A DNA stretch of 64,000 nt, taken from assembly GCA_963932905.1 (NCBI GenBank), contig CAWVRN010000020.1:1-64000 (forward strand). The letters run 5' to 3'. Under the pieces are notes generated by a model. That model was not told the DNA's origin, ran no database searches, and saw only the letters and a program-made list of their open reading frames with translations. Source of the stretch: an uncultured Bdellovibrio sp. (GTDB lineage Bacteria > Bdellovibrionota > Bdellovibrionia > Bdellovibrionales > Bdellovibrionaceae). The stretch's first letter is position 1. Every line of letters starts with the position of its first letter. This document shows positions 9,645 through 26,132 of the stretch, in pieces. The position numbers were made by a program, and so were the translations under genes.

Positions 9645-9710
9645 GCTCTTAAGTCCCTATATTACAAATTATACATGCAGTGTAAGCGAAGAACCCAGGT
9701 TTGTGAAGTA

Positions 9711-10268
9711 ATGATTAAAGTAGTGCTAATGTTCAGCCTGCTTTTATCATCATGCGCCTACAAGATCGGCCAGAAATTTCGATCTTTGCCTGGTGGTTAT
9801 CAAAAGATATCTATTCCGGTATTTAAAAACAAATCTATGGAACCAGGGGCCGAAGCCATTGTTACGGCCGCGTTGAAAGAAGAATTCTTTCGTTCGACAG
9901 TTTTAAAAGTCGTGAGTGATAACGAAGCTGAAGTGCGTTTAGAAGGCCAAATCGATACATTGAAGTTTGATTCCATGGCGATCAAAGAATCGGACAATAA
10001 TAATCATTTACCTATAGGCACTGTCCTTGCGACGTCATACAATATGACCGTGATCTTGAATGTGAAGTTAGTTAGAACGGGAACTTCTGAAGTTTTATGG
10101 CAATCGCAATTTACAGGATCGCGTCCAATGAATGCCTCGCAAGTCACAATAGCTGGAGTGAATTCGATCAATCCAATATATAACCAAAATGCAAAACGTA
10201 TGGTCCTGGAAAATGTGGCCAATGAACTGAGTAATCAGATTCATAATAATTTGACAGAGAATTTCTAA
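9711..10268 (+). CDS. lptE: LPS assembly lipoprotein LptE family
   Basis: Lipobox LSSC followed by AY, SIPVFKNKSMEPG motif, position directly upstream of holA. Confidence 0.8.
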   Translation: MIKVVLMFSLLLSSCAYKIGQKFRSLPGGYQKISIPVFKNKSMEPGAEAIVTAALKEEFFRSTVLKVVSDNEAEVRLEGQIDTLKFDSMAIKESDNNNHLPIGTVLATSYNMTVILNVKLVRTGTSEVLWQSQFTGSRPMNASQVTIAGVNSINPIYNQNAKRMVLENVANELSNQIHNNLTENF

Positions 10269-11260
10269 TGAAACCGAATCAACAAGTGTTTGAACAATTT
10301 TACGCCGATATCGAAAACGGGAAGTTAAAGCCATTTTATTTTTTCTCGGGTGAAGAAGAATTTTTATTAAACAAGAATTATAATTTTTTAGTTGATCGTC
10401 TATTGGATGAAACGGGCAAAGAGTTTAATTTTAACGTTTTTGATTCGCAAAATTTCAATGCGGAATCATTCTTGGATTCCTATAACATGTACCCGATGAT
10501 GAGCCCTTACCGCGTGCTTGTGATCAAGGATTTGGAATCGATCACGGATACAACTTTTGCTAGCGTGGATGAGATTTTTAAAAATCCAAATCCGGCTTCG
10601 ATCGTTATTTTCATCAGCAACCAAGTCGACAAAAAGAAAAAAATGTACACGGTATTGGCTAAACATGCATTCGCATTAGAATTCAAAAAACCATTTGAAA
10701 ACCAGATTTCCTATTGGATTAAATATTTATGCAAAGAACGCCAAATTGATATCACCGATTCGGCATGTGATATTTTGCATTTTAAAATTGGCACAAATTT
10801 AAGGACACTAGATAAAGAAATTCAAAAGCTGATCGATTATGTAGGTGCAAAAAAATTGATTGAAGAATCAGACGTTGAGATGGTCGTGACGGATCAAGTC
10901 CGCAGTACTATGTTTCAGTACATCGATCAGTGGAGTGAACGTGATATTTTAAAACAGCTTAAAATAATAGAACAGCTGGATCGTAGCGGGGAAAGTGAGT
11001 TTGGTTTTTTAAGCCTGCTCGCTCGCCATTTTAGAATTCTGCATTCCTTAAAAGCATTTGCCGAAGCTAAACGATCTAAAGATGAATTTTTACGTGAAAC
11101 GCGTACACCGCCGTACTTCTACGATAAATACCTAAAACAGTCGCGGGCTTGGAGTTTAACAGATCTTGAAAATCAATTGTCGACTATTTACTCCGTGTCG
11201 AATGCGGTAAAACAGCATGGCGAGCTGTCCAAGTCGCACCTGTCTCGGTTGGTTATATAG
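10268..11260 (+). CDS. holA: DNA polymerase III delta subunit
   Basis: PFYFFSGEEEFL, FNFNVFD, PMMSPYRVLVIKD and EIQKL motifs. Confidence 0.9.
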   Translation: MKPNQQVFEQFYADIENGKLKPFYFFSGEEEFLLNKNYNFLVDRLLDETGKEFNFNVFDSQNFNAESFLDSYNMYPMMSPYRVLVIKDLESITDTTFASVDEIFKNPNPASIVIFISNQVDKKKKMYTVLAKHAFALEFKKPFENQISYWIKYLCKERQIDITDSACDILHFKIGTNLRTLDKEIQKLIDYVGAKKLIEESDVEMVVTDQVRSTMFQYIDQWSERDILKQLKIIEQLDRSGESEFGFLSLLARHFRILHSLKAFAEAKRSKDEFLRETRTPPYFYDKYLKQSRAWSLTDLENQLSTIYSVSNAVKQHGELSKSHLSRLVI

Positions 11261-11290
11261 TTAGCTGTCAAATCAGGACTATAGTCGCAG

Positions 11291-11317
11291 TAAGCGTGTG
11301 GTCTGTTATGCCGATAT
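11291..11317 (+). promoter_or_regulatory. sigma28 (FliA)-like promoter TAAG-N15-GCCGATAT
   Basis: Near-consensus -35/-10 boxes with exact 15-nt spacer. Confidence 0.6.
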
Positions 11318-11324
11318 GACATCG

Positions 11325-11654
11325 ATGCAAAAAGATACAGCTCTGGAAAGTCTAAGAAAGTTTCCGCGTAAGAACTATACGCGCTTGATTAGCATATTGT
11401 ACAAAGGCCAATATCATACCTTCGAGTCTATCGAAATCTCGGAAGGTGGACTTTCATTTTTATCGGATTTGGTTCTAGATAACGGGATAGAATGTGTCGT
11501 GAACTTGCAGATTCCCAAAGGGGATTTTGTCAGTGTCCGAGGGACGATTCGTCACTCTTCAAAAGTAAACGGGCAGCTGAATATCGGTATTTCCTTCGAT
11601 AAGATGGCTTTTTCTAATAAAAGACAAATTCGAAGTTTCGTTGCTGCCCGCTAA
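11325..11654 (+). CDS. Single-domain PilZ protein
   Basis: RKFPR (RxxxR), EISEGG and C-terminal GISF; start uncertain. Confidence 0.85.
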   Translation: MQKDTALESLRKFPRKNYTRLISILYKGQYHTFESIEISEGGLSFLSDLVLDNGIECVVNLQIPKGDFVSVRGTIRHSSKVNGQLNIGISFDKMAFSNKRQIRSFVAAR

Positions 11655-11667
11655 TTAAGAATCAGAA

Positions 11668-11943
11668 CTATTTAGAAGCTGTTGCTACTTTATGAGCGCG
11701 AGATGCTAAACGGCCAACTTTTCTAGACATAGTTTGTTTTTTGAAAACACCCTTAGAAACGGCGCGAGTTGCTTCGCTAGTGTAAGCTTTAACTAATTCA
11801 GGAAGAGCTTTAAGGTCTAATGAAGTGATAGCTTTGATAAGTTTCTTTTCCGCTGTTCTAACTTTGCTTCTACGAGCTGAGTTAACTGCGTTTTTTCTAA
11901 CTGTCTGTCTGGCTCTTTTTTCTGCTGACTTATGAGTTGCCAA
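11668..11943 (-). CDS. rpsT: 30S ribosomal protein S20
   Basis: ATHKSAEKRARQ...SRKVGRL; TTG start at 11943 with GGAGG RBS. Confidence 0.95.
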   Translation of the reverse strand: MATHKSAEKRARQTVRKNAVNSARRSKVRTAEKKLIKAITSLDLKALPELVKAYTSEATRAVSKGVFKKQTMSRKVGRLASRAHKVATASK

Positions 11944-12027
11944 ATGTGCCTCCAAAATAAATAATTCGTTGCAAACGAGACTAAGAGCATTAACATAGTC
12001 TAAATACGTTCGCAAGCCACAAAATCA

Positions 12028-12108
12028 AAGGGTACCTCCTAACATTCTGGTACCCAAAGCGTCATCATCATTGCCGCGTTGGGTACCAGAATGTTAGGAG
12101 GTACCCTT
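12028..12108. repeat. Perfect 30-bp inverted repeat with 21-nt spacer
   Basis: AAGGGTACCTCCTAACATTCTGGTACCCAA (12028-12057) and its exact reverse complement (12079-12108). Confidence 0.95.
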
Positions 12109-12123
12109 CGAAATGAAGAAACT

Positions 12124-13728
12124 ATGGAAGATCAAAATAATAAAAAAAATCAAGTAGTTAAGAATGCGCTTGCGATGTCCTTGGGCACGTTTTCAAGTCG
12201 CGTGTTGGGGTTGCTTCGAGATACGCTTCTTATGTCATTTTTTCCAAGACCGATTACGGATGCTTGGACGGCCGCTTTTAGACTGCCCAATATTTTGCGC
12301 CGGTTGCTGGGCGAAGGATCGCTTTCGGTCAGTTTTATACCTGTTTTTGTGGATTGTCTGGAAGAATCTAAAAAAGGCGATCTGGCTAAGGCTCAGAATT
12401 TTTTAAACTCACTTTACACTTTATTGCTGATAGTATTGTCGATTTTAACCGCAATAGGTGTGATTTATTCTGATCGCGTTTTGGCTTTTACGGTGGATCC
12501 AAGTTATGTACAAAATGTTGAGAATTTTTCAATAGCCGTTCGCATGTCGCAAATTATGTTCGGCTTTATATTTTTGATGAGCCAGTACGCCTTATTTATG
12601 GGAGTTTTGAATTCACTGGGGCAATTTGGTTGGCCAGCCATGGCGCCTTTGTTTTTTAATATCTCGATGATCGTGTCCACCGTCATGCCAGATAACTGGT
12701 TTAGTTTTCCAGGTGAAGGTTTAGCATGGGGGGTTTTAGTTGGTGGGGTTTTACAAACAGTCGTGTTAGTTCCACCCTTAATTAAAAAAGGCTACATGCC
12801 TCGGTTGACGTCTACGTTGTGGACTCCCGAAGTGAAAATGGTGTTGTCGCGCATGGTTCCTGGATTGTTTGGGATGGGCGTATTGCAGTTGTCTCTTGTG
12901 ATCAATCAACGATTTGCCAGTTCATTGGGTGATGGACCCATTTCTTATATATACATTGCAGATCGACTATTAGAATTACCTTTGTCATTAGTTTCAGTCA
13001 GTTTAGGTACGGCCTTGCTGCCGACATTATCTAGTTTTTTGTCTGCGGGAAAAAAAAATGCGATGTTGGAAACTGTAGAAACCTATTTTCGTTTAAATTT
13101 ATATGTGGTCCTGGCCGCCGCGACGGGACTGTATTTCCTGGGTGAGCCTATCGTTGAATTATTTTTTCAACGGGGGCAATTCACGGCACAAGATACGGCA
13201 ACCACAGCGCAAGTGATTCAGGTTTGGGCTTTGATAATGATCCCAGCCAGCGCGGTGAGAATTTTAATTCCTGGTTATTACGCAATAAAAAACACCTGGT
13301 TTCCAGCGGTGCTTTCGTTAGTCAGTTTGACGGGGCACTATTTACTAGCGCCGGTTTTAATGGCGAAGTGGGGACTGACGGGACTAAATTACTCCTCATT
13401 AGCCAGTAGCTTGTTTAACTTTACGGTTTTATTTGGTGCTTATCCTATTTTTATTGGATCGATTCCGTTAAGAAAAAGTCTAATTGCGATGGTTAAGTTT
13501 GTCGCTATTTGTGGAGTCATGGCGTTGGTTCTGCAGATTCATCCGATATTAAAACAGGCCTTCGCAGGCCATTGGACTTCGATCACAAAAGCCGGAGTTT
13601 TGTTTTTTTGCATAGCCTTATCGGCCGTGATTTTTATTTTGCTTTCAAAAGCGCTAAGATTAGAAGAGTACGAAAATACCTTTGCGAAGGTTATCGGTAA
13701 AATCACTCGCAAGTTAGGAATCAAGTGA
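12124..13728 (+). CDS. murJ: Lipid II flippase
   Basis: SRVLGLLRD, AFRLPNILRRLLGEG and ADRLLELPL motifs; many TM segments. Confidence 0.95.
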   Translation: MEDQNNKKNQVVKNALAMSLGTFSSRVLGLLRDTLLMSFFPRPITDAWTAAFRLPNILRRLLGEGSLSVSFIPVFVDCLEESKKGDLAKAQNFLNSLYTLLLIVLSILTAIGVIYSDRVLAFTVDPSYVQNVENFSIAVRMSQIMFGFIFLMSQYALFMGVLNSLGQFGWPAMAPLFFNISMIVSTVMPDNWFSFPGEGLAWGVLVGGVLQTVVLVPPLIKKGYMPRLTSTLWTPEVKMVLSRMVPGLFGMGVLQLSLVINQRFASSLGDGPISYIYIADRLLELPLSLVSVSLGTALLPTLSSFLSAGKKNAMLETVETYFRLNLYVVLAAATGLYFLGEPIVELFFQRGQFTAQDTATTAQVIQVWALIMIPASAVRILIPGYYAIKNTWFPAVLSLVSLTGHYLLAPVLMAKWGLTGLNYSSLASSLFNFTVLFGAYPIFIGSIPLRKSLIAMVKFVAICGVMALVLQIHPILKQAFAGHWTSITKAGVLFFCIALSAVIFILLSKALRLEEYENTFAKVIGKITRKLGIK

Positions 13729-14834
13729 AAATTCTTTCGCGACGATTTATTCTTTCGTTATTAGGGCTTTTCGGGGCGGGAGCCGCCATTATGCGCTGGC
13801 AAAAGAAATCACAAGAGGAACAGAATATGATCAAACAGCAATTCACATTAGATTTTCAGTGGCAGACTCAAGAGCCATTTTTATTCTGCGTCCACCATTA
13901 TGATTTTTATCCGAAAGGAAATGCCGAATTTGGTCCGGACAAATTATTGCTTGCTGGCCGTGATATAGGACAAGACTTTGCGGGCAAAGATGGTTTTCGT
14001 ATGTACCACGGTGAAGTGGTTCCTGGATTTCCAGTACATCCTCATCGCGGATTTGAAACGATAACGATCGTTCGCAAAGGGTACGTAGATCACGCGGATT
14101 CTTTGGGTGCTGCCGGTCGCTATGGCCAAGGCGATGTACAATGGATGACGGCGGGAAGTGGTGTTCAACACTCTGAAATGTTTCCACTGTTAAAACAAGA
14201 CCAAGACAACACAATGGAGCTTTTTCAAATTTGGTTGAACCTACCAAAGAAAAGTAAAATGGCACCTCCACATTTCACCATGTTCTGGAGTGAAAAGATT
14301 CCGGTGTTAGAGTTAGACAATAAAAAAGTAAAATTGAGTATAATTGCTGGCAGTTACCAAGGCACAAGCGCTTTACCTCCGCCACCGGACAGTTGGGCAA
14401 GTCAGCCTGAAAGCGATACGGCAATTTGGTTATTAAAAATCGAACCAGGCGGGCAATTTGAAATTCCGGTAACAAAAGCAGATACGGCACGAACCTTATA
14501 CTTTTTCGAAGGCAAAGGCGCGACCTTCAACGGCAAAGATATTGTGGCGAAGTCAGGACTAGTGGTAGATGCCTCTCAAGCGATTACGATCAAAGCCGCC
14601 GATTCCCTTGTGGAAGTATTGATGCTGCAATCTAAATCCATTGGCGAGCCGGTCGTTCAATACGGACCATTCGTTATGAACTCGCAAGCAGAGATTCGTC
14701 AAACTATGATTGATTATCAGCAAACGCGGTTCGGTGGTTGGCCCTGGGAACGCCATGATCAAATTCATGGTGCCAAAATCGAACGATTTGCAAAATACCC
14801 GAACGGCAAAGTCGAAAAACCAGAAGCGATTTGA
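13725..14834 (+). CDS. Pirin family protein (long form) with a possible Tat-like leader
   Basis: GFPVHPHRGFETIT, GDVQWMTAGSGVQHSE, FQIWLNLP and YGPFVMN motifs; alternative ATG near 13827. Confidence 0.9.
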   Translation: MKILSRRFILSLLGLFGAGAAIMRWQKKSQEEQNMIKQQFTLDFQWQTQEPFLFCVHHYDFYPKGNAEFGPDKLLLAGRDIGQDFAGKDGFRMYHGEVVPGFPVHPHRGFETITIVRKGYVDHADSLGAAGRYGQGDVQWMTAGSGVQHSEMFPLLKQDQDNTMELFQIWLNLPKKSKMAPPHFTMFWSEKIPVLELDNKKVKLSIIAGSYQGTSALPPPPDSWASQPESDTAIWLLKIEPGGQFEIPVTKADTARTLYFFEGKGATFNGKDIVAKSGLVVDASQAITIKAADSLVEVLMLQSKSIGEPVVQYGPFVMNSQAEIRQTMIDYQQTRFGGWPWERHDQIHGAKIERFAKYPNGKVEKPEAI

Positions 14835-14911
14835 TTTAAAAGAAAATACTATTGGATAATCTGTTTAGTACAGATAGTTTTTACAGGTACGGTTAGCCAC
14901 ACAAAACAATG

Positions 14912-15589
14912 CTACTGACGATTCAACTTGCTAGAACCATGTACTCGAATGGCCTGAAGTTGACTCTGGCTAAGTCCGATGAGAATTCCAAGAACTCGAT
15001 AGTCATTTTGTTCACTTGTGCACTCGTGAATTCTAATTTGGACCTCGTTTATTCCAATAGTCTTTAAGAAATCTGATTCTAACATGACATGATCCAACGG
15101 ACGAAGTGCTGTAGCCGATTTAAATTGAATTGCTATTTCTGAAATGCCAGTGATCTGCACATGAGACCTTAAAATAGAATGGTTTCCTTCAGTTTCAAGC
15201 ACTGGAGTCATGTTCCAAACGTCTTCCCTTTTAAGAATTTTTGCAATTTTACTTTCTAGTATCATCGGATCTATTGGTTTGATTAAATAATCTGTTACGC
15301 CTTGTTCAATTGCTTTTTTGATGTCCTTTGCTTCATTTCGACTGGTAACAAATATTGCGGGAATTGATTTGAGTTCCTGATGGTTTCGTATAGTTTTAAG
15401 AATCTCCATGCCGCTTATCTTTGGCATCATCCAGTCTAAAATAACCAGGTCGAATTTGGTTTTGCTTAAGATGTCTATGGCGCTAAAGGCATCGCTAGTT
15501 TGACTGACATCAAACCCCTTTTTTATCAGTAGCTTGTCGAGCACTTTTAGATCACTCGGATTGTCGTCTACAATTAGTATTTTATTCAT
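14912..15589 (-). CDS. Response regulator, REC plus degenerate PilZ-like C-terminus
   Basis: ILIVDD, LVILDWMMP and YLIKP; C-terminal ITGISE...LIGL..QLQAIR; ATG overlaps the Hpt stop. Confidence 0.85.
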   Translation of the reverse strand: MNKILIVDDNPSDLKVLDKLLIKKGFDVSQTSDAFSAIDILSKTKFDLVILDWMMPKISGMEILKTIRNHQELKSIPAIFVTSRNEAKDIKKAIEQGVTDYLIKPIDPMILESKIAKILKREDVWNMTPVLETEGNHSILRSHVQITGISEIAIQFKSATALRPLDHVMLESDFLKTIGINEVQIRIHECTSEQNDYRVLGILIGLSQSQLQAIRVHGSSKLNRQ

Positions 15590-15936
15590 AATTGTCCTCT
15601 GTTTTTCTTCCATTCGTTAAATATTTTAATAAACAACTGATACTCAGTTTCAATTTGTTCCAGCTTGGAATGATAGTCCGCACCGTCTGCCCTTTTTTCA
15701 ATTTCTTCAAGAAGGCTTCCTACTTTTTTAGCTCCCACGTTTCTTGCGCTCGATTTAATTTTGTGAGCTTGCTGTCGTAGTTCAGTGTCATTAAAATTTT
15801 GGTCAGTTTGTAAAGAGTTAAAAAAGGCTTCTTTTTGACTCGAGAAAATGGAAACGAGTTCATCAAATAAATCCATTTCATAAGTTTCTTCAAGTGCATT
15901 GAAAGAAGATATAGTTTCTTGAATGAATTTTTCCAT
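15586..15936 (-). CDS. Stand-alone Hpt phosphotransfer protein
   Basis: AHKIKSSARNVGA Hpt signature. Confidence 0.88.
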   Translation of the reverse strand: MEKFIQETISSFNALEETYEMDLFDELVSIFSSQKEAFFNSLQTDQNFNDTELRQQAHKIKSSARNVGAKKVGSLLEEIEKRADGADYHSKLEQIETEYQLFIKIFNEWKKNRGQL

Positions 15937-16346
15937 TAGGCCGCCTTCACTGATGTGTTGCTTATTTTTCTGATTCTTTCGATTTGCTTACTGATGCTCC
16001 ATTCTTTAGAGACGTAACAAAGATATTTGAAATACTTTGCTTTAGGCAATTTTAGCTCACTCATTTTTGTTGAAGAGTAAACAATCACTTCGATCCTTTT
16101 CGAATTCGTATGATTTAAACTATCGATCTGTGTAAAAATGTCGTCAGTCAGCAAAATCATCGATTTTCCTGAAAGTCTAGGCATGAGCCAATCGAGAATA
16201 ACCAAATCGGGTGGGCTATTCAGTAGAATATCCATGGCCATATCTCCGTCATCGGCCTCGTTGATGATATTGTTATCGTTTTTAAGGGCGTATTTGATCA
16301 GCTCCCTAGAATTTTGATTGTCGTCAATGACAAGAATGTTTTTCAT
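15936..16346 (-). CDS. Single-domain response regulator (atypical C-terminal half)
   Basis: ILVIDD, LVILDWLMPRLSG, IVYSS and YVSK. Confidence 0.85.
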   Translation of the reverse strand: MKNILVIDDNQNSRELIKYALKNDNNIINEADDGDMAMDILLNSPPDLVILDWLMPRLSGKSMILLTDDIFTQIDSLNHTNSKRIEVIVYSSTKMSELKLPKAKYFKYLCYVSKEWSISKQIERIRKISNTSVKAA

Positions 16347-16358
16347 ATTTAATTCCTT

Positions 16359-17558
16359 TTAATTTTTTGAAAACAGAGAATCGGTTTGTATCCGATCCTT
16401 CTTGTTTGTTATCGTAAACGTAAATTTTGAGCCAAAATTAGGTCGACTTTCTACTGAAATAGCACCTCCCAGTGAATCGATCAGTTTTTTACTTATAGAA
16501 AGACCAAGTCCGGTTCCGCCATATTGTCTATTCATTGCGCTGTCACCTTGAACAAATGGATTGAAAAGTTTTTCAACTGTATCCAACGTCATACCAATTC
16601 CGGTATCCGTGACCATAAATTTGACGATTTGATCTTGTATCCCAAACATATCTACTTGAATAAATCCACTGTGGGTAAATTTGTTAGCGTTACCAACTAA
16701 ATTAATAAGTATTTGTTTCAGTTTTCTTCGGTCTGTGACTATTTTTTCGGTCGGGTCATGGATTTTGAAACCGAGTTTGTTATTTCGTTTTTCAGCGAGT
16801 GCTTTTAATGAACTAAATATTTCCTCTATCAAAACATTGAGGGAAACTTCTTCTTCGTTTAATTCTATATGACCCGATTCGATTTTTGATAGATCTAGAA
16901 TATCATTTATTAATGAAAGCAGGCTCTCTGCTGAATCGAGAATACCTGACACATATTCAGACTGTTCTGAGTTTAGCTCGGTCGTTTCTTTCATAAGCTC
17001 GGCCATACCAATTATTCCATTCATGGGTGTGCGTAACTCGTGGCTCATAGTGGCCAGAAACTGCGATTTCATTTCGGATGCATTTCTGGCAATTTCATTC
17101 GCTTCTTTAAGCTTTTCATTTAATTTATGGGCTTCAATTATTGTTCTGTTTTGAGTCTGAGTAAGCATAAGAAAATCGAAAATTTGGTCTTGTAACGGGA
17201 AGTCGTTAAAATTCAGGTTCAGTCGGGTCACCTCGTGCACTGCGCTTGCGGACAGACTACCAATAAAGACAAATGTCTCCGAAAAATTCGGTTTTATAAA
17301 TTGACCAATAAGTTTTGCTTTTGTGGTTTTCTCTTCAAGTTGAACAAGCTCATCTAGTACACAATTTAGATTTTCTGGTAAAAAATCGGTTGGTTTTAAA
17401 AAGTGTAAATGATTTTCAAAGTGATCGCCATCGACATTTCTACCAATTAATTTTTTTATCGAACGACCAGCCGTTTGAATTTTGTATTCGCCGTCCACAA
17501 TAAAACTAAAAGGGAATATTTTCTCCAATGTTGAAAGCTGAAGGCTGAGTCTTTTCAT
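16359..17558 (-). CDS. H-NOX-associated (HNOBA/PAS) histidine kinase
   Basis: N-terminal LEKIFPFSFIVD HNOBA-like motif; MSHELRTPMNG H-box; N and G boxes; no TM segment, no REC. Confidence 0.9.
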   Translation of the reverse strand: MKRLSLQLSTLEKIFPFSFIVDGEYKIQTAGRSIKKLIGRNVDGDHFENHLHFLKPTDFLPENLNCVLDELVQLEEKTTKAKLIGQFIKPNFSETFVFIGSLSASAVHEVTRLNLNFNDFPLQDQIFDFLMLTQTQNRTIIEAHKLNEKLKEANEIARNASEMKSQFLATMSHELRTPMNGIIGMAELMKETTELNSEQSEYVSGILDSAESLLSLINDILDLSKIESGHIELNEEEVSLNVLIEEIFSSLKALAEKRNNKLGFKIHDPTEKIVTDRRKLKQILINLVGNANKFTHSGFIQVDMFGIQDQIVKFMVTDTGIGMTLDTVEKLFNPFVQGDSAMNRQYGGTGLGLSISKKLIDSLGGAISVESRPNFGSKFTFTITNKKDRIQTDSLFSKN

Positions 17559-18094
17559 TATTTACCCACGATTTCTAAGGTAAAAATCTTTCTTTCATTT
17601 ATTTCGCTATAGTTGATTTCTACTTTGGTATTATATTTTATTGCTAAACCTTCAAGTAGGCCTTGAACCATAGGTGAAAGACCTGAACGTTTTGACTTAT
17701 ATTCTAATTGGAATTTTGTATCAGAGAGTTCGGTGAAAATGAAACTTGGCGGGGATAACTTTGGCATTGTCATGCCCATTCTGGAATGCAGGTGATTCAA
17801 ATTTTTTAAGCAAGATTTGAAATCTTCACCAAACAGGTCCATTATCGGCCCGTAGCCTTCTTTGGCAGTATATAGGATCCAATATTTCCCGAACTCTCCA
17901 AGGATCTTCTCTGGTTGTAAGTTCAATTTTTTTGAAACCGCCGCGACCAGACGATAGGTTGTTTCGTCCTCATAATACTGCATCGAGATATATTCGTCTG
18001 GAGCATTCGCATCTAGGCATATTTGCGTCCATGTTTCTTGATTAGATAAGCTTAGAACTAAATCTTTAATTCCTTGATTGACAAGACCATACAT
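17558..18094 (-). CDS. hnoX: Heme NO-binding (H-NOX) sensor
   Basis: MYGLVN start, FGKYW, proximal His in NLNHLH, PPSF proline, YxSxR (YKSKR); AAGGAG RBS. Confidence 0.93.
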   Translation of the reverse strand: MYGLVNQGIKDLVLSLSNQETWTQICLDANAPDEYISMQYYEDETTYRLVAAVSKKLNLQPEKILGEFGKYWILYTAKEGYGPIMDLFGEDFKSCLKNLNHLHSRMGMTMPKLSPPSFIFTELSDTKFQLEYKSKRSGLSPMVQGLLEGLAIKYNTKVEINYSEINERKIFTLEIVGK

Positions 18095-18235
18095 ACAAAC
18101 ACTCCTTCGTTTGACTTGATTGTTGTATATCTGCACCAAAATAATTAATTAGTATTTTGAAGAAATCTTAACAAAACTCTAGAGAAAAGCGGTCAGCTTT
18201 ATCCTATTATAGGTAAGCATATAGAAGGAGTTCGT

Positions 18236-18625
18236 ATGGCCGACAAGGCTCAAGTTTCGGTATTAGTTGCAGAAGATAACGAAGTTAATCAGAAAATAAT
18301 TGCGAAAATTCTTTCTAAAAATGGTATCGATTACAAGATTGTTTCCAATGGTGAGCAAGCGATCGATATGTATCAAATTGGGAGCTATGGTTTAATTTTA
18401 ATGGATTGCCAAATGCCTATCATGGATGGATTGGTGGCCACCGAGAGAATACGGGAATTCGAAAAAACAAATGGAAAGGGGCGAGTACCTATAGTTGCGT
18501 TAACAGCAAATGCAATGAAAGGCGACAGAGAAAAGTGCATGGAAAGAGGTATGGATGACTTTCTACCTAAACCATTTCGAATGAATCAGTTGTTGGACTT
18601 AATTAAACACTGGACTACGCCGTGA
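18236..18625 (+). CDS. Single-domain response regulator (hybrid-kinase-type REC)
   Basis: VAEDNEVNQ, LMDCQMP, ALTANA and GMDDFLPKP. Confidence 0.9.
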   Translation: MADKAQVSVLVAEDNEVNQKIIAKILSKNGIDYKIVSNGEQAIDMYQIGSYGLILMDCQMPIMDGLVATERIREFEKTNGKGRVPIVALTANAMKGDREKCMERGMDDFLPKPFRMNQLLDLIKHWTTP

Positions 18626-18703
18626 TAGGAAGACAATTTTCAGGTGAAAGGTATTTATAAAAAATGAAAAAAAATAGATTAATCACAAGGATTGGAGATT
18701 AAT

Positions 18704-19105
18704 ATGAGACGAATAGTTATTGTAGATGATAGTCCCATTTTTCATAGGATCATGGAAAGTATTCTCAAACCGTATTTCCAAGTAGTAGGTAAAGGGTTTT
18801 CCGGATTGGAGGCCATTGACCTGTATACAAAAATGAAACCAGATTTGTTGTTGCTTGATATTACGATGCCTAATTGTGACGGCAAAGAATCATTGCAAAA
18901 AATTTTGTCTCTGTTTCCCAATGCAACGATCGTAATGGTTTCGGGGATCGGTGATATGGACACAGTGAAAGAATGCCTCGAACTAGGTGCCAAAGCATTT
19001 GTAAATAAAGGACAAATTTCAGCTACAAAACCCGAAAACTGCGAACTTCTAAAAGTGGTAAATTATGTTTTGGATGGCAACACCGAAAAAGTGAGAGTCG
19101 CATGA
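18704..19105 (+). CDS. CheY-like response regulator
   Basis: VIVDDS, LLLDITMP, VMVSG and AFVNK. Confidence 0.88.
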   Translation: MRRIVIVDDSPIFHRIMESILKPYFQVVGKGFSGLEAIDLYTKMKPDLLLLDITMPNCDGKESLQKILSLFPNATIVMVSGIGDMDTVKECLELGAKAFVNKGQISATKPENCELLKVVNYVLDGNTEKVRVA

Positions 19106-21228
19106 GCGGTTTAGACATGAATAGAATAGATTTAAAGAAAACATGTGGTGCTTATTCGGGTTCAATTCAACGAACATTGAAAGATTTGTTTGCGATTGAC
19201 GTTGAGTCAAATGTAAATTCAGCGTCCACGACAAAATTGAAGGAACAGGATAATCTATATTTTTCAATACTGTTTACTGGACAAGTTTATGGAGAGTTTT
19301 TAATTGGTCTGTCCAGAAAAACGGCCATCAACATGTTAGGAATTCCCTACACACAAGAAAATGAAAAAGAAATTTATGAGGCCAACAGGGCGGTTATCTT
19401 AGATACCTTTAAAGAAGTTGTTAATATTGCCGCCGGATCAACTCTGGCATCTTTTAAAGAGGTATTTGAGGGATTGTCAATAACGCCTCCGCGGTCGATA
19501 GAGGGATATATAACGTTATCCTCTTATCAAATCGAAGCTGTGTCATTGCATCACCAGTTCGGGGATTTATCTTGTTACATATACGTAGACTACATGCGAT
19601 TGGATATCGTCAACACACTGACAAAAAAAGAAAATCTGATAAAGGCCGAAAAAGAGAAACAGGAAGAATTAAAACGGTTAAACAAAGCAAAATCACAATT
19701 TCTTGCGAATATGAGTCACGAACTAAGAACTCCCCTTAACGGAATTATTGGAATGTTAGACGTCTTGAAGACTTCACCTTTAGATCAAGCGCAGTTAGAG
19801 CAATTTGATGTCATTTATCGAAGCGGAGAATTTTTACTTACCTTGATTAGTGATATACTAGAATTTTCGAAAATTGAATCGGGAAAGTTGGAAATTGAAA
19901 AGCGGTCTTTTGATTTAAGGAATGCTTTAGAGACGGTAGTAGAAAGTTTAACATCTGTTATTCAAAGAAGAAATTTGGATTTTATAGTGAAAATTTCTCC
20001 TCTTATTTATGGCACTTATATTGGAGACGAAACACGCATTAAGCAAATTTTAATTAATTTACTTGGCAATGCTGCTAAATTTACTCCATCTGGATCAATA
20101 ACTTTGTCTGTAGGAGCCAATAAGGATTCTAAAATCGAAATCAAAGTAATCGACACAGGAATAGGGATTCCTGCAGAGAAGTTAGAGACTATCTTTGGTT
20201 CCTTTAGCCAAGCTGATGTTTCTGATAACAGAAAATACGGAGGAACTGGTTTAGGCTTATCTATAACTAAATCTTTTGCAACAGCTATGGGGGGAACTAT
20301 ATCAGTCGAAAGTGAAGAAGCAAAAGGAACTTGTTTTACGGTTCAGTTACCTATCCAAAAAACAGACTTTTCTGTAGCGTTTCCAAAAGAAAGAAATTCA
20401 ATATCGGACTCAAAAGTATTTGTGTTAACTCATAATAATAGACTGTTTGAATCCCTGAACGAAAACTTATGGGTAGTGGCTCCACTGGTAAGTATAGAAA
20501 GAATTGATTCCGACTATTCTAGCCATTTTGATTTTAAAGATAGGGTGTTTTTGGATTTTCAAACTGTTAAAGAATATTGCTCTACGGCACTTGAAACGAC
20601 TCCTCTATGGAAAAACATTAGAGACCAAAACGTATCTGTTGTACTGCTTGTACAGCCGAGATTTTTAGGCGAAGCCAATCAGCTTTTGACGAAACTGACG
20701 CACCCAAAAATATCCATTCTTACTGTGCCAATCCTATTAGGAAAAGTTTCAAAAATTTTAAGTAATCCGTCTGTTCTTGAAGTCACCAAAAAAGAGAATA
20801 AAGTGCCTCAGAAAGATAATCTGAATTTAGAAGCGTCTGAAAAAAAGATATTAGTAGTTGAAGATAATCCAACCAATCAGCTTGTTATAGAAAACTTACT
20901 AAAAAAACTAAATTACAGATGTCAGATCGTGAACGATGGTAAGGAAGCGGTGGAATTAATCGAAAAGGGAAAGACCTTTGATTTAATTTTTATGGACTGT
21001 CAAATGCCTATCATGAACGGATATGATGCGACCAAGGCAATTAGAAATTACGAAAAAGAATCAAACATCCATACCGTGATAATAGCTCTAACTGCCAATG
21101 CCTTTAGAGAAACAAAAGAAGAGTGTTTTGAAGCAGGCATGGATGACTTTGCAACTAAACCGTTAAAGCGAGAACTTCTTGAAGAGATACTCACTAGAAC
21201 ATTTAAAGGAAGAGCCGGGGGTAACTAG
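19102..21228 (+). CDS. Cytoplasmic hybrid histidine kinase with N-terminal CheX/CheC-like domain
   Basis: SILFTGQVYGEFLIG..FKEVVNIAAG..LSITPP (CheX-like ExxN); SHELRTP H-box, HATPase and C-terminal REC. Confidence 0.85.
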   Translation: MSGLDMNRIDLKKTCGAYSGSIQRTLKDLFAIDVESNVNSASTTKLKEQDNLYFSILFTGQVYGEFLIGLSRKTAINMLGIPYTQENEKEIYEANRAVILDTFKEVVNIAAGSTLASFKEVFEGLSITPPRSIEGYITLSSYQIEAVSLHHQFGDLSCYIYVDYMRLDIVNTLTKKENLIKAEKEKQEELKRLNKAKSQFLANMSHELRTPLNGIIGMLDVLKTSPLDQAQLEQFDVIYRSGEFLLTLISDILEFSKIESGKLEIEKRSFDLRNALETVVESLTSVIQRRNLDFIVKISPLIYGTYIGDETRIKQILINLLGNAAKFTPSGSITLSVGANKDSKIEIKVIDTGIGIPAEKLETIFGSFSQADVSDNRKYGGTGLGLSITKSFATAMGGTISVESEEAKGTCFTVQLPIQKTDFSVAFPKERNSISDSKVFVLTHNNRLFESLNENLWVVAPLVSIERIDSDYSSHFDFKDRVFLDFQTVKEYCSTALETTPLWKNIRDQNVSVVLLVQPRFLGEANQLLTKLTHPKISILTVPILLGKVSKILSNPSVLEVTKKENKVPQKDNLNLEASEKKILVVEDNPTNQLVIENLLKKLNYRCQIVNDGKEAVELIEKGKTFDLIFMDCQMPIMNGYDATKAIRNYEKESNIHTVIIALTANAFRETKEECFEAGMDDFATKPLKRELLEEILTRTFKGRAGGN

Positions 21229-21308
21229 TATCAAAATGAGCCACTAGTTTTGATCGATCAAAATTTTATGATAAAATATACTTAGATCAAAAAAAAGGTG
21301 GCACGTTT

Positions 21309-22004
21309 ATGGATGATTTAATTTTGGTTGTTGAGGACTCTCTATCCTGTCAAAAGATTGCGGTAAATACTTTAAAAAATATTGGTGAGGTAAAAGCTGT
21401 TAGAACCCTACAGGAGGCTAGAGACTATTTGTTAAATAATTCGGTAAAATTAGTGATACTAGACATCGAGTTGCCGGACGGGAATGGCTTAGAATTTTTT
21501 AGTGAGTTGCAAACAAAAATGAATTTTCCTGAGACACCGGTCATAGTGACTTCTGGTAGTAGTGATATCTGCACAAAAGTAACAGCATTTTCATACGGGG
21601 CGGAGGACTATTTGGTAAAGCCCTATTCACCAATGGAACTCCGGGCAAGAATTGAGAGGGTTTTTCGTTCTGGAAGGTCAGGGTCGTTATTCAGAGAATT
21701 GAAATCAGGCTTAACCCTTGATTTTAATAAATTTAAAGCAACTTATTTGGAGAAAGAGGAAGAAGTCGATTTAAATTTAACACCCCACGAATTTAAAATT
21801 CTAAGTTTGTTTTTGAAAAATCCCGAAAATGTCTATTCCCGAGAAAAAATATTGGACCTGGTGTGGGGCCATGATGTTTATCTAAATGAAAGAACCGTAG
21901 ATACCCACATTTCTTCACTGAGAAAAAAATTAGGCAATTTAGGCATTTCTATAGTAACAATTCGAGGAGACGGATATAAATCGGCTTTTAAGAAACCCGC
22001 CTGA
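21309..22004 (+). CDS. OmpR/PhoB-family response regulator
   Basis: REC plus wHTH (LTPHEF, RTVDTHISSLRKKL, TIRGDGY). Confidence 0.92.
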   Translation: MDDLILVVEDSLSCQKIAVNTLKNIGEVKAVRTLQEARDYLLNNSVKLVILDIELPDGNGLEFFSELQTKMNFPETPVIVTSGSSDICTKVTAFSYGAEDYLVKPYSPMELRARIERVFRSGRSGSLFRELKSGLTLDFNKFKATYLEKEEEVDLNLTPHEFKILSLFLKNPENVYSREKILDLVWGHDVYLNERTVDTHISSLRKKLGNLGISIVTIRGDGYKSAFKKPA

Positions 22005-22307
22005 TAGGTACTTACTGGCCTTCTAAAAACTGGATCGTTGACAAGCGGACTGTGAATCGTTGGTCTCGCTTGCAAAAAGAGTCTGCGAAAGTAAAAACCG
22101 AAAAAAGCATTGCCTATTCAAAGCAACATTTTGCTTACAATTTTTTAATTCAGCTCTCTGCCGTCTCAAAAAAATTGAGATGGTTAAAAGCAGAAAACCG
22201 TCATCGGATAACCAACCTAAAGAAGAATAAGATCATTCTTAATTCAATTTTTGGGTGGGGCCTCTAAGTCAAATCATTGAAGCAAATTTAACTTATACAG
22301 TTATAAC

Positions 22308-23144
22308 CTACTTTACCTGCTGTTCGCCTGGGTCTAGTTTAAAGTTTCCATCCTCGTCTAATCCTAAAGTCGATTCCGTTTCAAAACCCTTTCTAAAACA
22401 CGTAAACAGGTCACTAGCGCTTGGGTCGATGGTGGGGCATGGATTGGAGGCTGGAACTCGATTGGTATCATCAATAGCATTGTTTGAAGTTATAATCGAA
22501 AGATTCATTTTTTTAATTAAGTTAGCTACTTTAAGCTCAACTAGAAGTGTTTTGTTTTCCAATGGCGTAACGGCAGTAGCTCCAGAAATTTGAGACTCTG
22601 ATTCATCAAAGGTCGAAAATGAAAAACCATGCCCATTCACTGTTCCTTCAACATAAAGACTCTTGTTCAATAATCCTGAAGGTGCACCTTCTGGTAGGGT
22701 GGATGTCCGAATTAATTTCATTTTAATTCTGCGAATTTCTTTAATTCCGACTTGATTAGAGCCCAATATGGTAGGTGCTTCGGAAAACAAATTGACCGTG
22801 TAAGGGCCTTTGAAGTCAACGTTTGAACCTGTCTCTTCCCCTGATTCAACGTTTTCGGCAGTTTTGAATTCGAGCTCGCCAATAGTGATCCAGTTTTTGT
22901 TCAATTGAACTGAATTTCCTGCAGAATCAGTCAATGATGTTGGCGCCGGAAACGCAAATAATTTAGGTATCAATAATTCTATGAGATGCTTTGGGTTATG
23001 CCTGAAATACACCGTTGAAACGGTTGAAGAGCTGGTCAGTGCGGCCGAGATTGAAGGATTTCCCGTCGTTGTGTTTTGAGACTTTTTTTGACAACTGAGT
23101 CCGAATATAAAAATTAAGAAAACTAAATTTGTTTTGAGTTTCAT
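22308..23144 (-). CDS. Hypothetical lipoprotein (paralog A)
   Basis: Lipobox GLSC; shares motif blocks with 24077-24928. Confidence 0.8.
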   Translation of the reverse strand: MKLKTNLVFLIFIFGLSCQKKSQNTTTGNPSISAALTSSSTVSTVYFRHNPKHLIELLIPKLFAFPAPTSLTDSAGNSVQLNKNWITIGELEFKTAENVESGEETGSNVDFKGPYTVNLFSEAPTILGSNQVGIKEIRRIKMKLIRTSTLPEGAPSGLLNKSLYVEGTVNGHGFSFSTFDESESQISGATAVTPLENKTLLVELKVANLIKKMNLSIITSNNAIDDTNRVPASNPCPTIDPSASDLFTCFRKGFETESTLGLDEDGNFKLDPGEQQVK

Positions 23145-23983
23145 TTTGTAGGCTCCTCTAACTGTGTAGTTAACAGCGGAAATGCGGCAATTTCGATGTG
23201 ATAAACATTGTTCTTATCTAAACTTCCTTTGTTAACTTCGTTAATAGAATCGACTGCTCGTTGAATAATTTGTTTTATCTTTTCGAAGTCCTGTTTGTTG
23301 ACAGCCATCGTTTGACCCATAATAAATCGTTCATCTCGTGTGCTTCTGTGGATCGACTCGTGGGCCAACTCAAGCATTTGTTTGTGAAATTCTCCCAAGC
23401 TGATTTTGTAAATGCCCTCAGTGCAATCAAGTCTTGGTGATGCCTGAGTCCAAGTACCGTTTGGATTTTCATTTATAAATTGATGTTGCTTTAAGAATTC
23501 GAGACTTTGCTCAATATCCGCTATGGTCAATTTTCTCTTTAATCGCTTTTGAATATTTTCAGGGGTCATCTCAAAACCATCTAAATTGAACATTTCATAA
23601 ATGGCAACATGATGCCACTTTGTCAGATAGTCGAATGTTCTATTTTCTGAAGCATTGACTGTTCTGAACTTTTTAAATTTCATCATTTCATTCAGGCAGT
23701 CCAAGCGAAGCTTTGGTTCTTCAGTTAGCCCTAAAACACGAAGTAAATTCATAAATTTTTTCTCGTCCTCTAGAAGTCCTAAATGGGGAGCTATCTTTAA
23801 AAATGCTTTTTCTGTTAAGCTTCGTTCTCGTTTTAAAATCATGTTCATATATCCGACAGCAACTCCGGTTTGCTTTGAAAAATTCCGAATAGAAAAGTCA
23901 TTTTTTGTTTTCCGCAAATAAGTCAGCCAATCATTCAAAAATTTCACTAAATCAAGGTATTGAAATATATTTGGTCTATCCAT
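23141..23983 (-). CDS. TIGR02147/DUF4423 family protein (HTH N-terminus)
   Basis: PNIFQYLD..FL..FSIRNFS, WHHVAIYEM, FHKQMLELA..SI...R and VYHIEIAAFPL. Confidence 0.85.
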   Translation of the reverse strand: MDRPNIFQYLDLVKFLNDWLTYLRKTKNDFSIRNFSKQTGVAVGYMNMILKRERSLTEKAFLKIAPHLGLLEDEKKFMNLLRVLGLTEEPKLRLDCLNEMMKFKKFRTVNASENRTFDYLTKWHHVAIYEMFNLDGFEMTPENIQKRLKRKLTIADIEQSLEFLKQHQFINENPNGTWTQASPRLDCTEGIYKISLGEFHKQMLELAHESIHRSTRDERFIMGQTMAVNKQDFEKIKQIIQRAVDSINEVNKGSLDKNNVYHIEIAAFPLLTTQLEEPTK

Positions 23984-23999
23984 TTTTCTTTCATTTACG

Positions 24000-24023
24000 G
24001 ACGGCCATCGAAAGATGGCCGTC
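24000..24023. other. GC-rich intercistronic hairpin GACGGCCATC-GAAA-GATGGCCGTC
   Basis: Perfect 10-bp stem; no U-tract in the direction of transcription. Confidence 0.7.
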
Positions 24024-24076
24024 TCAAAAAGTGACTTACTTATTTCAAATAAATCACATTCTTTTTATATCTATTG

Positions 24077-24928
24077 CTACTTTACTTTATCCTCATCTGC
24101 ATCTAATGAGCTATCACCATTTTTATCCAAACCTAGGTTGGCATGCTTTTCCAAACCTTTTCGAATGCAGGTATACAAATCATTAGCACTGGTATCAATC
24201 GACGTGCACAAGTTTGATCCAGTATGTCTATTATTGTGGTCTATGACCTCGTTATTAGTCACCGAAGATAGATCAATCTGCTTGAAAATATTTGCTATCT
24301 GTATCTCCACCATGATTTGAGAATTTTCAGAAGGTTGAAATGCCGACGATCCGCCAATCTGATATTCCGTGCCATCATCCAATTGGAACGTGAAATTTCG
24401 TCCCCCTACGGACCCGGCCATGTATATGCTATTGCTAGCTAGTCCGGCCGGAGCATCGGTTGGTAGTTGGGCTTGAGTCGCTTCGAGTTTCATTTTAATT
24501 CGTTTTATACTTTTTTTAGTAATACTCTGTGTATCCAATGCCTGCGGTGCTGAAGAAAGTAGGTTCACAAAATATGGTCCTTTAAATGAAACCTCGGATT
24601 GGCTATCCTCTGAGCCGCCCGCCGTTTCTTCTGATTTAAACTCGATCTCTTTTATAACTGTCCACGCACTGGAAAGTGTGATCGCAGAGCCCTGGGCGTC
24701 GACAATCGAAGTCGGAACTAATGCGTGCGCAGTCTTGATAAGGACATTCCACAGTGTTGGCTTTTGACTGCTCGCTACCGAGGCGGTCGATGCGGACCCA
24801 GTCATCTTGAATGACGAGGTTACCTGTGTCGTTCCTGAGTCGTTCTTGCTTGAACAGCTGATCATCGTTCCACAAACAGCTAAGGTTAGAATTGACTTGA
24901 TAGACTGAAATGTTTCTTGTTTCTTCAT
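24077..24928 (-). CDS. Hypothetical lipoprotein (paralog B)
   Basis: Lipobox MISC; AAGGAG RBS; paralog of 22308-23144. Confidence 0.8.
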   Translation of the reverse strand: MKKQETFQSIKSILTLAVCGTMISCSSKNDSGTTQVTSSFKMTGSASTASVASSQKPTLWNVLIKTAHALVPTSIVDAQGSAITLSSAWTVIKEIEFKSEETAGGSEDSQSEVSFKGPYFVNLLSSAPQALDTQSITKKSIKRIKMKLEATQAQLPTDAPAGLASNSIYMAGSVGGRNFTFQLDDGTEYQIGGSSAFQPSENSQIMVEIQIANIFKQIDLSSVTNNEVIDHNNRHTGSNLCTSIDTSANDLYTCIRKGLEKHANLGLDKNGDSSLDADEDKVK

Positions 24929-24989
24929 TTTAAACTCCTTTTTTGTTTCTAATTTGAGCTCCTCATGAGTCCCAAATCATCACAAATAC

Positions 24990-25018
24990 AGTCTAACATT
25001 TTAATGTGTTTCGTTCAA
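24990..25018 (-). promoter_or_regulatory. sigma70-like promoter TTGAAC-N17-TAGACT with extended TG
   Basis: Consensus spacing upstream of lipoprotein B. Confidence 0.55.
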
Positions 25019-25496
25019 TTATGTGAACGTTATAATCATACAAATGTACATATTAATCAATAATAACATATATTTATATACGTATTGAAATGATAATATT
25101 TAATTTGTATCTGATAAATGTGAACAGTGTGAGCGTATTTTTTTTGAGACAGAAGTTTCTAGTTTGAGGGAGCGCTTGAAAGATGTATGGGTTAGACCAC
25201 AAATAGGGGAAGGGACCATGAGGGGAGAACAGACCAACACCGCTTAGAACTCGCTGCTGGTCGAGGAACTTGCCTGCTAAAATTGCTGGATTCGAGATGA
25301 CTCGGATGGGGCGGGCTCACCACTGGTTATTGGTTTGCCGGCAAGATATGCTTTAATAGCTTTAGTTAGGCGATCATCATCCTGAATCTTCCCCCCGAAG
25401 TCATTCAGGAGTTTTTGAAATTCCTCCGGGGATTTGATCCACTACCAATCGAAATCTATTTGAGCGGTCACTAGATCAAGTCCTAACTTCTATACT

Positions 25497-26132
25497 TTAT
25501 TCCTTTACCTCAGCCATATTTTTAAAATTGTCGTAAGTTTTTTGTTGTTTATCGATTTCCTTATTCCAGCGAGTAATTTCGCCTTCATAGCCGATTTTCT
25601 TGTTTTTCCATTCGTTCGCTTGAGTGTTAACAGATTTTATTTTGTCCGCGACCTGCTTTTCTTGGTCTTTTAGACCTTGAATACGTGTCGTCCATTGTTT
25701 TTTCTCTTCTGCTATTTGAGTCGACTGAGTTTCATAGTCTTTGATATTCTGATTACGCTTAACTTGATTTTCCTTGATCTTTGCAATCAAATCTTCCAAC
25801 TCTTTGATCTTTTTGTCTTCTTGAGCGAGTTTGTTTTTTTCATCGTTCAATAGATTTTGAAGTTCTTTTTCGTTGGCTTCGACTTTTTTCATCGACGCTT
25901 GATTTTCTTTTAAAGATTTCGCTACTTGAGCTTTTTGGTCGTCGACTTCTTTCTTTGCTTTATTAACTTCCTGAATATTTTTTTCAACCATACTTAGGTT
26001 TTTTTTGTAGTCATCCAAGTTTAGTTTCGCGTTGTCGATATTTGATTTAATTTTTGCTAATGTATCGGCGCTGTTTGGTTTAGCAAATGATACCGTAGCT
26101 GTAAGTAAAAATAGTAATGATATCCGTTTCAT
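25497..26132 (-). CDS. Exported coiled-coil protein, last gene of the gliding operon
   Basis: Signal peptide ending SFA; long K/E/Q coiled coil; AGGAGG RBS. Confidence 0.8.
   Translation of the reverse strand: MKRISLLFLLTATVSFAKPNSADTLAKIKSNIDNAKLNLDDYKKNLSMVEKNIQEVNKAKKEVDDQKAQVAKSLKENQASMKKVEANEKELQNLLNDEKNKLAQEDKKIKELEDLIAKIKENQVKRNQNIKDYETQSTQIAEEKKQWTTRIQGLKDQEKQVADKIKSVNTQANEWKNKKIGYEGEITRWNKEIDKQQKTYDNFKNMAEVKE

Follow-up and report, generated by a model that had tools for sequence, protein, structure and literature searches.

A block of nine genes at positions 14912–22004 of the window analysed here, a 64,000 nt stretch of contig CAWVRN010000020.1 from an uncultured Bdellovibrio sp. 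(host genome G000), encodes what appears to be a two-input phosphorelay that includes an H-NOX sensor. On balance, we somewhat favour a reading in which two soluble kinases, one paired with the H-NOX protein and one headed by a CheX-like domain, feed a single multistep relay that ends in an OmpR-type factor and a REC-PilZ adaptor (Table 1). This reading was built on gene content, intact catalytic motifs, domain ancestry and recurring gene pairs, and all phosphotransfer steps, as well as the ligand and the direction of the response, are inferred from these. The H-NOX protein would bind nitric oxide (NO) and control the HNOBA kinase, and a separate receiver, REC2, would take phosphate from this kinase. 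The CheX-kinase would read and dephosphorylate phosphorylated REC3, and would phosphorylate its own receiver, REC4. Both REC2 and REC4 would load the Hpt protein, from which phosphate would move on to the OmpR factor and to the REC-PilZ adaptor. REC1 would likely act as a sink that buffers Hpt. By analogy with characterised H-NOX kinases (PMC4436077, PMC6769237; here and below, PMC numbers stand for excerpts of these papers), NO would lower the flow of phosphate, and so would likely change transcription and the binding of the adaptor to a partner.

The nine open reading frames were found in the order and orientation given by a first-pass annotation of this DNA, and Pfam returned the domains that it had named. 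These are HNOB, HNOBA-HisKA-HATPase, REC, Hpt, and REC with an extra domain in the left arm, and REC, REC, CheX-HisKA-HATPase-REC and REC-Trans_reg_C in the right arm; the CheX and PilZ-like assignments rest on profile and fold searches. The likeliest start of the H-NOX gene is at 18091 (MYGL, as in homologues), and that of the REC-PilZ gene is at 15589, with an open reading frame that could reach 15613. Spacings in the left arm are −1, +12, −1 and −28 nt, and those in the right arm are 78, −4 and 80 nt. All nine proteins appear soluble and cytoplasmic from their hydropathy, as had been proposed, with a maximum hydrophobic 19-mer of ≤1.38 in every one. In what follows, L-numbers are related loci, P-numbers related proteins and G-numbers genomes; gene labels at other loci came from in-house profiles and were checked by Pfam on 85 proteins.

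G000 has one H-NOX gene. Its HNOB domain scored 153 bits against a Pfam cut-off of 25.5, and the best PDB match was Nostoc Alr2278 (E 1e-38), with the beta1 subunit of soluble guanylate cyclase (sGC) at 1e-20 and the next bacterial H-NOX type far weaker at 3e-7. The haem residues H103, P116, Y132-x-S134-x-R136 and W72 are present; among 50 homologues, the proximal His, Pro, Tyr and Arg were found in all and the Ser in 49. M142 occupies what we take to be the distal position at which O2-binding H-NOX proteins carry a Tyr, and this residue is Met in 43 homologues, Phe in six, Leu in one and Tyr in none. As the haem residues are present and the distal Tyr is missing throughout, selectivity for NO is likely. 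The residues are thus of the NO-selective type, and the protein reads as an sGC-type haem sensor, likely for NO, as first suggested. The H-NOX gene adjoins the soluble kinase gene, with an overlapping stop and start at 17558, and H-NOX/HNOBA gene pairs are the norm at related loci across many phyla. Within the order, 17 of 21 other H-NOX loci have another H-NOX subtype and a kinase without HNOBA, and four have the window subtype with HNOBA. The sensor pair is thus exchangeable.

The HNOBA kinase has intact H, N, G1, F and G2 boxes. At 399 aa, it lacks the fused receiver of the H-NOX kinases in the Silicibacter and Vibrio relays. The kinase is approximately 400 aa long without a REC wherever it is complete (L129, L131 and L302), and five out of five further HNOBA-kinase matches were 391–403 aa, again without a REC, in a search that covered lengths of 219–699 aa. 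Quick trees made from short alignments, with Shimodaira–Hasegawa-like approximate likelihood ratio test (SH-aLRT) values as support, placed the kinase core in a receiver-less clade of four rows (99), nested in a group of 69 rows (85) of which 61 are hybrid kinases. REC2 fell in a 51-row clade (97) that holds 45 hybrid-kinase receivers, and its orthologues, with 52–58% identity, are divergent from H-NOX in L129, L130, L132 and L302. These placements suggest that the HNOBA kinase and REC2, its likely detached receiver, form a hybrid kinase encoded in two pieces. As REC2 falls among hybrid-kinase receivers, we rejected a role for it as an output CheY, a point that the first-pass annotation had missed. 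L342 and L344 resemble the window in having a receiver opposite H-NOX, yet are not orthologous.

A hybrid-type route requires an Hpt (PMC4436077), and one is present in the block. The REC1 gene lies directly 5′ of the Hpt gene in the window and for 10 of the 12 other members of its 13-row clade (99). REC1 retains the active-site residues, is without the Lys-Pro and has an altered alpha4 region. By eye, its beta4 segment resembles the FATGUY motif, a feature of intermediary receivers (PMC9981736). REC1 is likely an Hpt partner or a phosphate sink.

The extra domain of the REC-PilZ protein had no Pfam match in the window copy, and 5/11 homologues matched Pfam PilZ weakly. As a fold search with the whole protein returned receivers only, the C-terminal domain was folded alone. 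The model has a PilZ fold, with PilZ proteins as the best rows of the fold search (Z 9.0–9.4) and a match to 3kyf over 85 residues (Z 9.3, root mean square deviation 2.2). PilZ domains bind cyclic di-GMP (c-di-GMP) through RxxxR and (D/N)xSxxG motifs. RxxxR is missing from the window protein and from 36 of 37 family members, and the second motif is reduced to GISE. A role as a c-di-GMP receptor was rejected because of the missing RxxxR, and the REC-PilZ protein is likely a protein-binding adaptor. The OmpR-type regulator, to judge from its domains, is the likely transcriptional output.

Profile matches to the REC-PilZ C-terminal domain were found in 284 of 384 genomes of the order, of which the weak ones may include other PilZ proteins. 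The 21 other H-NOX loci of the order, several of which are cut by contig ends, have Hpt in 12 cases, OmpR in 11, REC-PilZ in nine and all three in eight. Hpt (16), OmpR (10) and hybrid kinase (16) genes also accompany REC-PilZ in 20 loci that have no H-NOX and were taken from the top scores. As the cassette is frequent with and without H-NOX, it is lineage-typical, and NO would be one of several inputs. On the sequences compared, the Hpt/OmpR/REC-PilZ cassette is common in the order and has exchangeable kinases, and the idea that these outputs are specific to an NO circuit had to be given up. Two related arrangements were seen in passing. At L273–L276 and L270, among them loci from several complete genomes of the family, the gene for the REC-degenerate-PilZ protein adjoins that of an unorthodox HK-REC-Hpt kinase of approximately 830–860 aa, a two-gene version of the cassette. 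OmpR-type regulators with a C-terminal Hpt are found in the H-NOX loci L036 (538–1620, by Pfam) and L039 (1879–2904, by in-house profile).

The second kinase starts with a CheX-like domain, which scored 24.6 bits on the whole protein against a Pfam cut-off of 27, and 27.8 bits, above the cut-off, in a second scan. A profile of the domain matched solved CheX structures from Thermotoga and Borrelia with E values of 1.9e-8 (1squ and 1xko) and 8.4e-8 (3hzh). Its active-site residues, read from the sequence as D101-x3-E105-x2-N108-x21-P130, match the CheC/CheX/FliY consensus D/S-x3-E-x2-N-x21-P (PMC12887009). The E-x2-N part is kept in 22/22 aligned loci and in all 149 representatives that cover the site, from the best 150. 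The window CheX is the N-terminal domain of a 708-aa kinase and not a stand-alone protein of approximately 155 aa. The CheX domain was detected in 22/384 genomes of the order (three-sequence profile) and 14/301 of the phylum (22-sequence profile), and the named homologues of the CheX-kinase come from Bdellovibrionales.

The CheX domain is fused to two different classes of HisKA kinase. Of 63 fusions scanned, chosen by length from the best 150, nine contain GGDEF, four SpoIIE, nine Hpt-HATPase without HisKA and two HATPase-CheW; the remaining ones are mostly histidine kinases, with 12 that had no match at 1e-6. Examples of the family are P0250, P0255, P0262, P0247, P0267, P0228 and P0241; the fusions P0214, P0216, P0221 and P0224 have no Pfam match at 1e-6. 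As one N-terminal CheX domain is joined by a coiled coil to unrelated enzymes, it behaves like an input domain, and its architecture suggests that it likely acts as the input of its kinase.

A single receiver is encoded directly 5′ of the CheX fusion in 21/21 other loci of the order (G020, where the contig stops at this point, was not counted) and in six of seven loci outside it. The seventh is a CheX-SpoIIE locus with the REC3-type gene 6 kb off, behind a large kinase that ends in Hpt-HATPase. At L354:4753–13002, a CheX-SpoIIE gene is divergent from the gene for a 1989-aa Ser/Thr kinase-AAA-GAF-Hpt-HATPase protein, which is followed by a REC3-type receiver. The 12 CheX-adjacent receivers in the receiver tree resemble CheY and form one clade (96), inside which no other G000 protein falls, and the block contains no che genes. 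These associations point to REC3 as the likely dedicated partner of the CheX-kinase. We suggest, tentatively, that CheX here is a phosphatase turned receptor, a portable module that would bind phosphorylated REC3-type receivers, destroy their signal and switch the enzyme fused to it, be that a histidine kinase, diguanylate cyclase, PP2C phosphatase or CheA-like kinase. In this island it would integrate a second phospho-signal at one Hpt with NO, the latter sensed by the sGC-like H-NOX/HNOBA pair of the split hybrid kinase.

A synteny search found the two arms together in other genomes, as predicted. The full set of nine gene types recurs, in altered order, at L302, a locus from another genus of the family, with identities to the window of 46% for the HNOBA kinase, 56% for REC2, 50% for REC3, 38% for OmpR, 29% for Hpt, 25% for REC-PilZ, 43% for the CheX-kinase over its length and 37% for REC1 over part of it. 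Within this otherwise intact nine-gene block, L302:5657–5900 is an H-NOX pseudogene with internal deletions and a frameshift; because of this decay it was missed by the family search. Seven types are present in L132, namely REC-PilZ, OmpR, Hpt, REC1, REC2, H-NOX and the start of HNOBA. With the gene set recurring in both loci, the view of the block as one recurring circuit was upheld. Four exact contig sizes were common to the best 69 of 119 listed H-NOX matches and 41 CheX-kinase matches (0.06 expected from jittering), and two of the four, 9037 and 7957, recur among the HNOBA matches. These coincidences point, indirectly, to H-NOX and the CheX-kinase on the same contigs.

The block is more AT-rich than its flanks, as had been noted, with a GC content of 36.3% against 41.6% and 38.9%, and against 40.7% for the genome, where only 8/1202 windows of equal size are as low. 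Codon usage deviates mildly (top 10% of 523 gene sets), and GC at third codon positions is in the lowest 6%. No attachment-like repeats were found at the block ends in a repeat scan, and the longest repeat in the block reflects the paralogy of REC2 and REC4. No H-NOX was found in 9/9 genomes of the same genus (83–99% complete); it is present, with G000 included, in 22/384 genomes of the order and 30/301 sampled from the phylum. An alignment-based scan of genomic contigs returned 220 H-NOX loci, of which 80 were kept; L128, identical to window positions 9561–26094 and perhaps the source assembly, was left out of counts. A scan of the genomic contig collection with the single H-NOX protein gave no matches. 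Several of the closest named H-NOX loci are in Bacteriovorax and Bdellovibrionia assemblies; together with the named CheX-kinase homologues, these place the organism in Bdellovibrionota.

The pirin orthologue that flanks the block is present in six congeners. In three of these, the gliding operon follows 30–215 nt after it, i.e. the site is empty (L221–L223); in two others, unrelated stretches of 1.2 and 2.3 kb intervene, and one is uninformative. We conclude that the block, together with three passenger genes, is an accessory insert that fills a variable site. The first-pass annotation had suggested that the block could tune motility or prey-phase behaviour and noted the gliding operon nearby. 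The gliding-like operon does start 3.5 kb from the block, with its last gene ending at 25497, and it includes OMP_myx_plus and AgmX-tail domain models above cut-off as well as NCBIfam matches to GltC, GltG, CglD and TolQ below cut-off. Because the block fills a variable site, this nearness looks incidental and is no evidence of function. A functional link was rejected as positional, given the empty site in three congeners, and no test tied the outputs to gliding or predation. The Pfam scan skipped 118 non-signalling neighbours of other H-NOX loci, among which gliding genes may occur.

Several observations weigh against a single relay. The full set of nine genes was seen in one other genome only, that of L302, where H-NOX is broken. 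At the 21 intact H-NOX loci of the order, no CheX-kinase gene lies within 6 kb, and the two inputs are thus mostly found apart. REC1 and REC-PilZ share the operon of the HNOBA kinase and could be its direct substrates. REC2 and the HNOBA kinase differ in their nearest hybrid relatives, so the trees do not show a single fission; those for receivers and kinases are built on few columns and leave many forks open. G000 also encodes further stand-alone Hpts, as well as 19 additional hybrid kinases, and no target was found for OmpR or the REC-PilZ adaptor. A rival reading is that of two separate, co-located systems, with the H-NOX kinase acting directly on receivers encoded in its own operon and an independent REC3/CheX-kinase/OmpR arm. 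The arms are divergent operons, the kinase, REC1, Hpt and REC-PilZ genes abut, and REC3 and the CheX-kinase occur without H-NOX in 20/21 other genomes of the order that have the pair, the exception being G139 with a decayed copy. We regard this arrangement as unlikely, as REC2 is of the hybrid-receiver type and lies opposite H-NOX in four other loci, and as L302 and L132 have REC1, Hpt and REC-PilZ on the REC2 side of H-NOX. With genes redistributed in this way, the arms are not fixed units.

Wiring to Hpt as proposed could also serve a conventional H-NOX network with c-di-GMP as its main output in trans, through an orphan REC-GGDEF protein. The absence of GGDEF, EAL and HD-GYP genes stated at the outset is true within the block by Pfam, and overstated for the genome: G000 has five GGDEF genes elsewhere, one of them an orphan REC-GGDEF at C27:45210–46274. 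In Silicibacter, the SiliHK-SiliHpt pair reaches an orphan diguanylate cyclase (PMC4436077). An output of this kind is possible; that it is the main one seems to us improbable, since receiver-bearing outputs travel with Hpt across the order, 27 loci searched by a crude motif scan were without GGDEF, EAL or HD-GYP motifs, and the PilZ fold is without RxxxR. Quite improbable is a circuit that tunes swimming or gliding, with REC3 as a motor-binding CheY-like output and CheX merely its tethered phosphatase. The best PDB matches of REC3, a single receiver, are CheY proteins, FliM and three CheA-like kinases are encoded in G000, the CheX catalytic motif is intact and the gliding operon is close by. 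Against this stand the site that is empty in three congeners, the sporadic REC3/CheX-kinase pair (22/384 genomes), the REC3 clade without other G000 proteins, and the GGDEF and SpoIIE proteins headed by the same CheX domain, in which there is no histidine kinase to oppose. We consider it very improbable that H-NOX senses haem redox state, CO or O2 instead of NO. NirK and NosP gave no match above cut-off in G000 and no NorB was seen (NO synthase and flavohaemoglobin were not searched for), so no endogenous source of NO is evident, and a cbb3-type oxidase gene, as we read it, suggests low-oxygen life. The distal Tyr is, in turn, found in 0/50 homologues, and the closest solved relative is Alr2278. 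Alr2278 binds NO and CO and excludes O2.

The favoured reading of one two-input relay has partial counterparts in known systems. In Nostoc, the Alr2278 H-NOX stands in an operon context with H-NOXA/H-NOBA kinases. The block shares with Alr2278 and sGC beta1 the H-NOX subtype followed by a HNOBA/PAS and coiled-coil protein (PMC2828450); a receiver-less hybrid-type kinase, a divergent free receiver and the Hpt/OmpR/REC-PilZ cassette were seen only in Bdellovibrionales-like loci. The SiliH-NOX/SiliHK/SiliHpt/SiliDGC system of Silicibacter sp. TrichCH4B likewise has a stand-alone H-NOX by a soluble hybrid-type kinase and a relay via a stand-alone Hpt, but its receiver is fused, and both its Hpt and its output, a diguanylate cyclase, are orphans (PMC4436077), whereas here the receiver gene is separate, the kinase has a HNOBA domain, and a second kinase and the outputs are encoded in the block. 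H-NOX/HqsK/LuxU of Vibrio harveyi resembles the block in its cytosolic H-NOX kinase among hybrid kinases that converge on one Hpt and a transcription factor; it differs in that HqsK, as the excerpt describes it, is without a sensory domain, the other inputs are autoinducer receptors and the output is LuxO (PMC6769237), in place of the HNOBA and CheX-like input domains and OmpR-type output here. The HnoX/HnoK networks of Shewanella oneidensis and Vibrio cholerae also couple an H-NOX kinase to several response regulators, one of them transcriptional, but have another H-NOX subtype (E 3e-7 compared with 1e-38), no Hpt step in the excerpt and c-di-GMP outputs (PMC4436077). Our results bear out that the block is wired differently from the Shewanella and Vibrio H-NOX systems. 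CheX phosphatases that act with CheY in Thermotoga, Borrelia and Vibrio vulnificus share the D-x3-E-x2-N-x21-P motif and an adjacent CheY-like gene (PMC12887009), whereas the CheX domain forms the N-terminal end of a kinase here and of GGDEF, SpoIIE and CheA-like proteins at other loci, away from chemotaxis operons.

The logic of H-NOX to hybrid kinase to Hpt is already known from Silicibacter and Vibrio, and what we describe is an accessory island of a single uncultured-type genome. A literature search found no study of a split H-NOX kinase, of CheX-headed kinases or cyclases, or of the Hpt/OmpR/REC-PilZ cassette, with an earlier mention of CheX fusions being possible, and no H-NOX study in Bdellovibrio or predatory Bdellovibrionota. 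The block would provide a gas-sensing pathway in Bdellovibrionota with all predicted steps in one cloneable piece. Its two-protein H-NOX/HNOBA kinase mirrors the sensing half of sGC, and signal transfer through HNOBA and the coiled coil could be tested by a simple kinase read-out. It also exposes an order-wide output cassette (Hpt, OmpR and REC-degenerate PilZ) whose sensors are exchangeable. What most deserves testing is the CheX input module. The CheX-headed enzyme family, if the input reading is true, would represent a new way of coupling two phosphorelays.

Table 1. Features of the nine-gene block and its surroundings (window coordinates)
Feature	Position	Strand	Evidence
H-NOX	17558–18091	−	Nostoc Alr2278/sGC-beta1 type; Pfam HNOB E 8e-45; PDB match; residues in 50 homologues
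HNOBA(PAS)-HisKA-HATPase kinase, 399 aa, hybrid-kinase ancestry, without receiver	16359–17558	−	Pfam; catalytic boxes; tree
REC1, atypical single receiver	15936–16346	−	Pfam; 13-row clade; adjoins Hpt gene
Stand-alone Hpt (His58, HKIKSS)	15586–15936	−	Pfam Hpt above cut-off; cassette-Hpt motif match
REC and degenerate PilZ fold without RxxxR	14912–15589	−	Model and fold searches; family alignment
REC2, stand-alone hybrid-type receiver	18236–18625	+	Receiver tree; orthologues opposite H-NOX
REC3, CheY-like single receiver	18704–19105	+	PDB matches; 5′ of CheX fusion elsewhere; clade
CheX-like domain, coiled coil, HisKA-HATPase, degenerate middle segment, REC4; 708-aa hybrid kinase	19102–21228	+	Pfam, profile
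OmpR-type response regulator	21309–22004	+	Pfam; receiver tree groups it with cassette OmpR proteins
Divergent intergenic region, 144 nt	18092–18235	.	Spacing between arms
Three passenger genes of same insert	22308–24928	−	Sub-threshold DUF4382 matches, TIGR02147; absent from empty sites L221–L223

The passenger genes comprise two paralogues with 41% identity, to which the DUF4382 matches belong, around the TIGR02147-family gene, and they were not found with the relay in the other loci examined. A promoter scan returned 18 promoter-like sites where 23 were expected, which is not above chance, the 144-nt divergent region included. RNA run X1 contained six identical 151–195 nt pieces in the block, compared with a single piece in a control stretch of 19.8 kb. 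We did not take this as evidence of expression: it is one study with very little depth, the block itself had served to locate the run, and the pieces could derive from DNA.

Elsewhere in G000, C7:21626–23824 encodes subunit I of a haem-copper oxidase (732 aa), in which we tentatively read a CcoN-CcoO fusion of the cbb3 type. In the window, an open reading frame with a weak match to IS481 transposases is present at 39832–41046, just past the gliding operon and an OmpA gene. A stand-alone PilZ gene at 11298–11654, the product of which has no PDB sequence match, lies between holA-like and rpsT-like genes and is kept in L221 and L223. At 167–2278, the window encodes a 703-aa protein of the di-haem cytochrome c peroxidase family (NF040606, above cut-off) with a weak likeness to RoxA/B/C.

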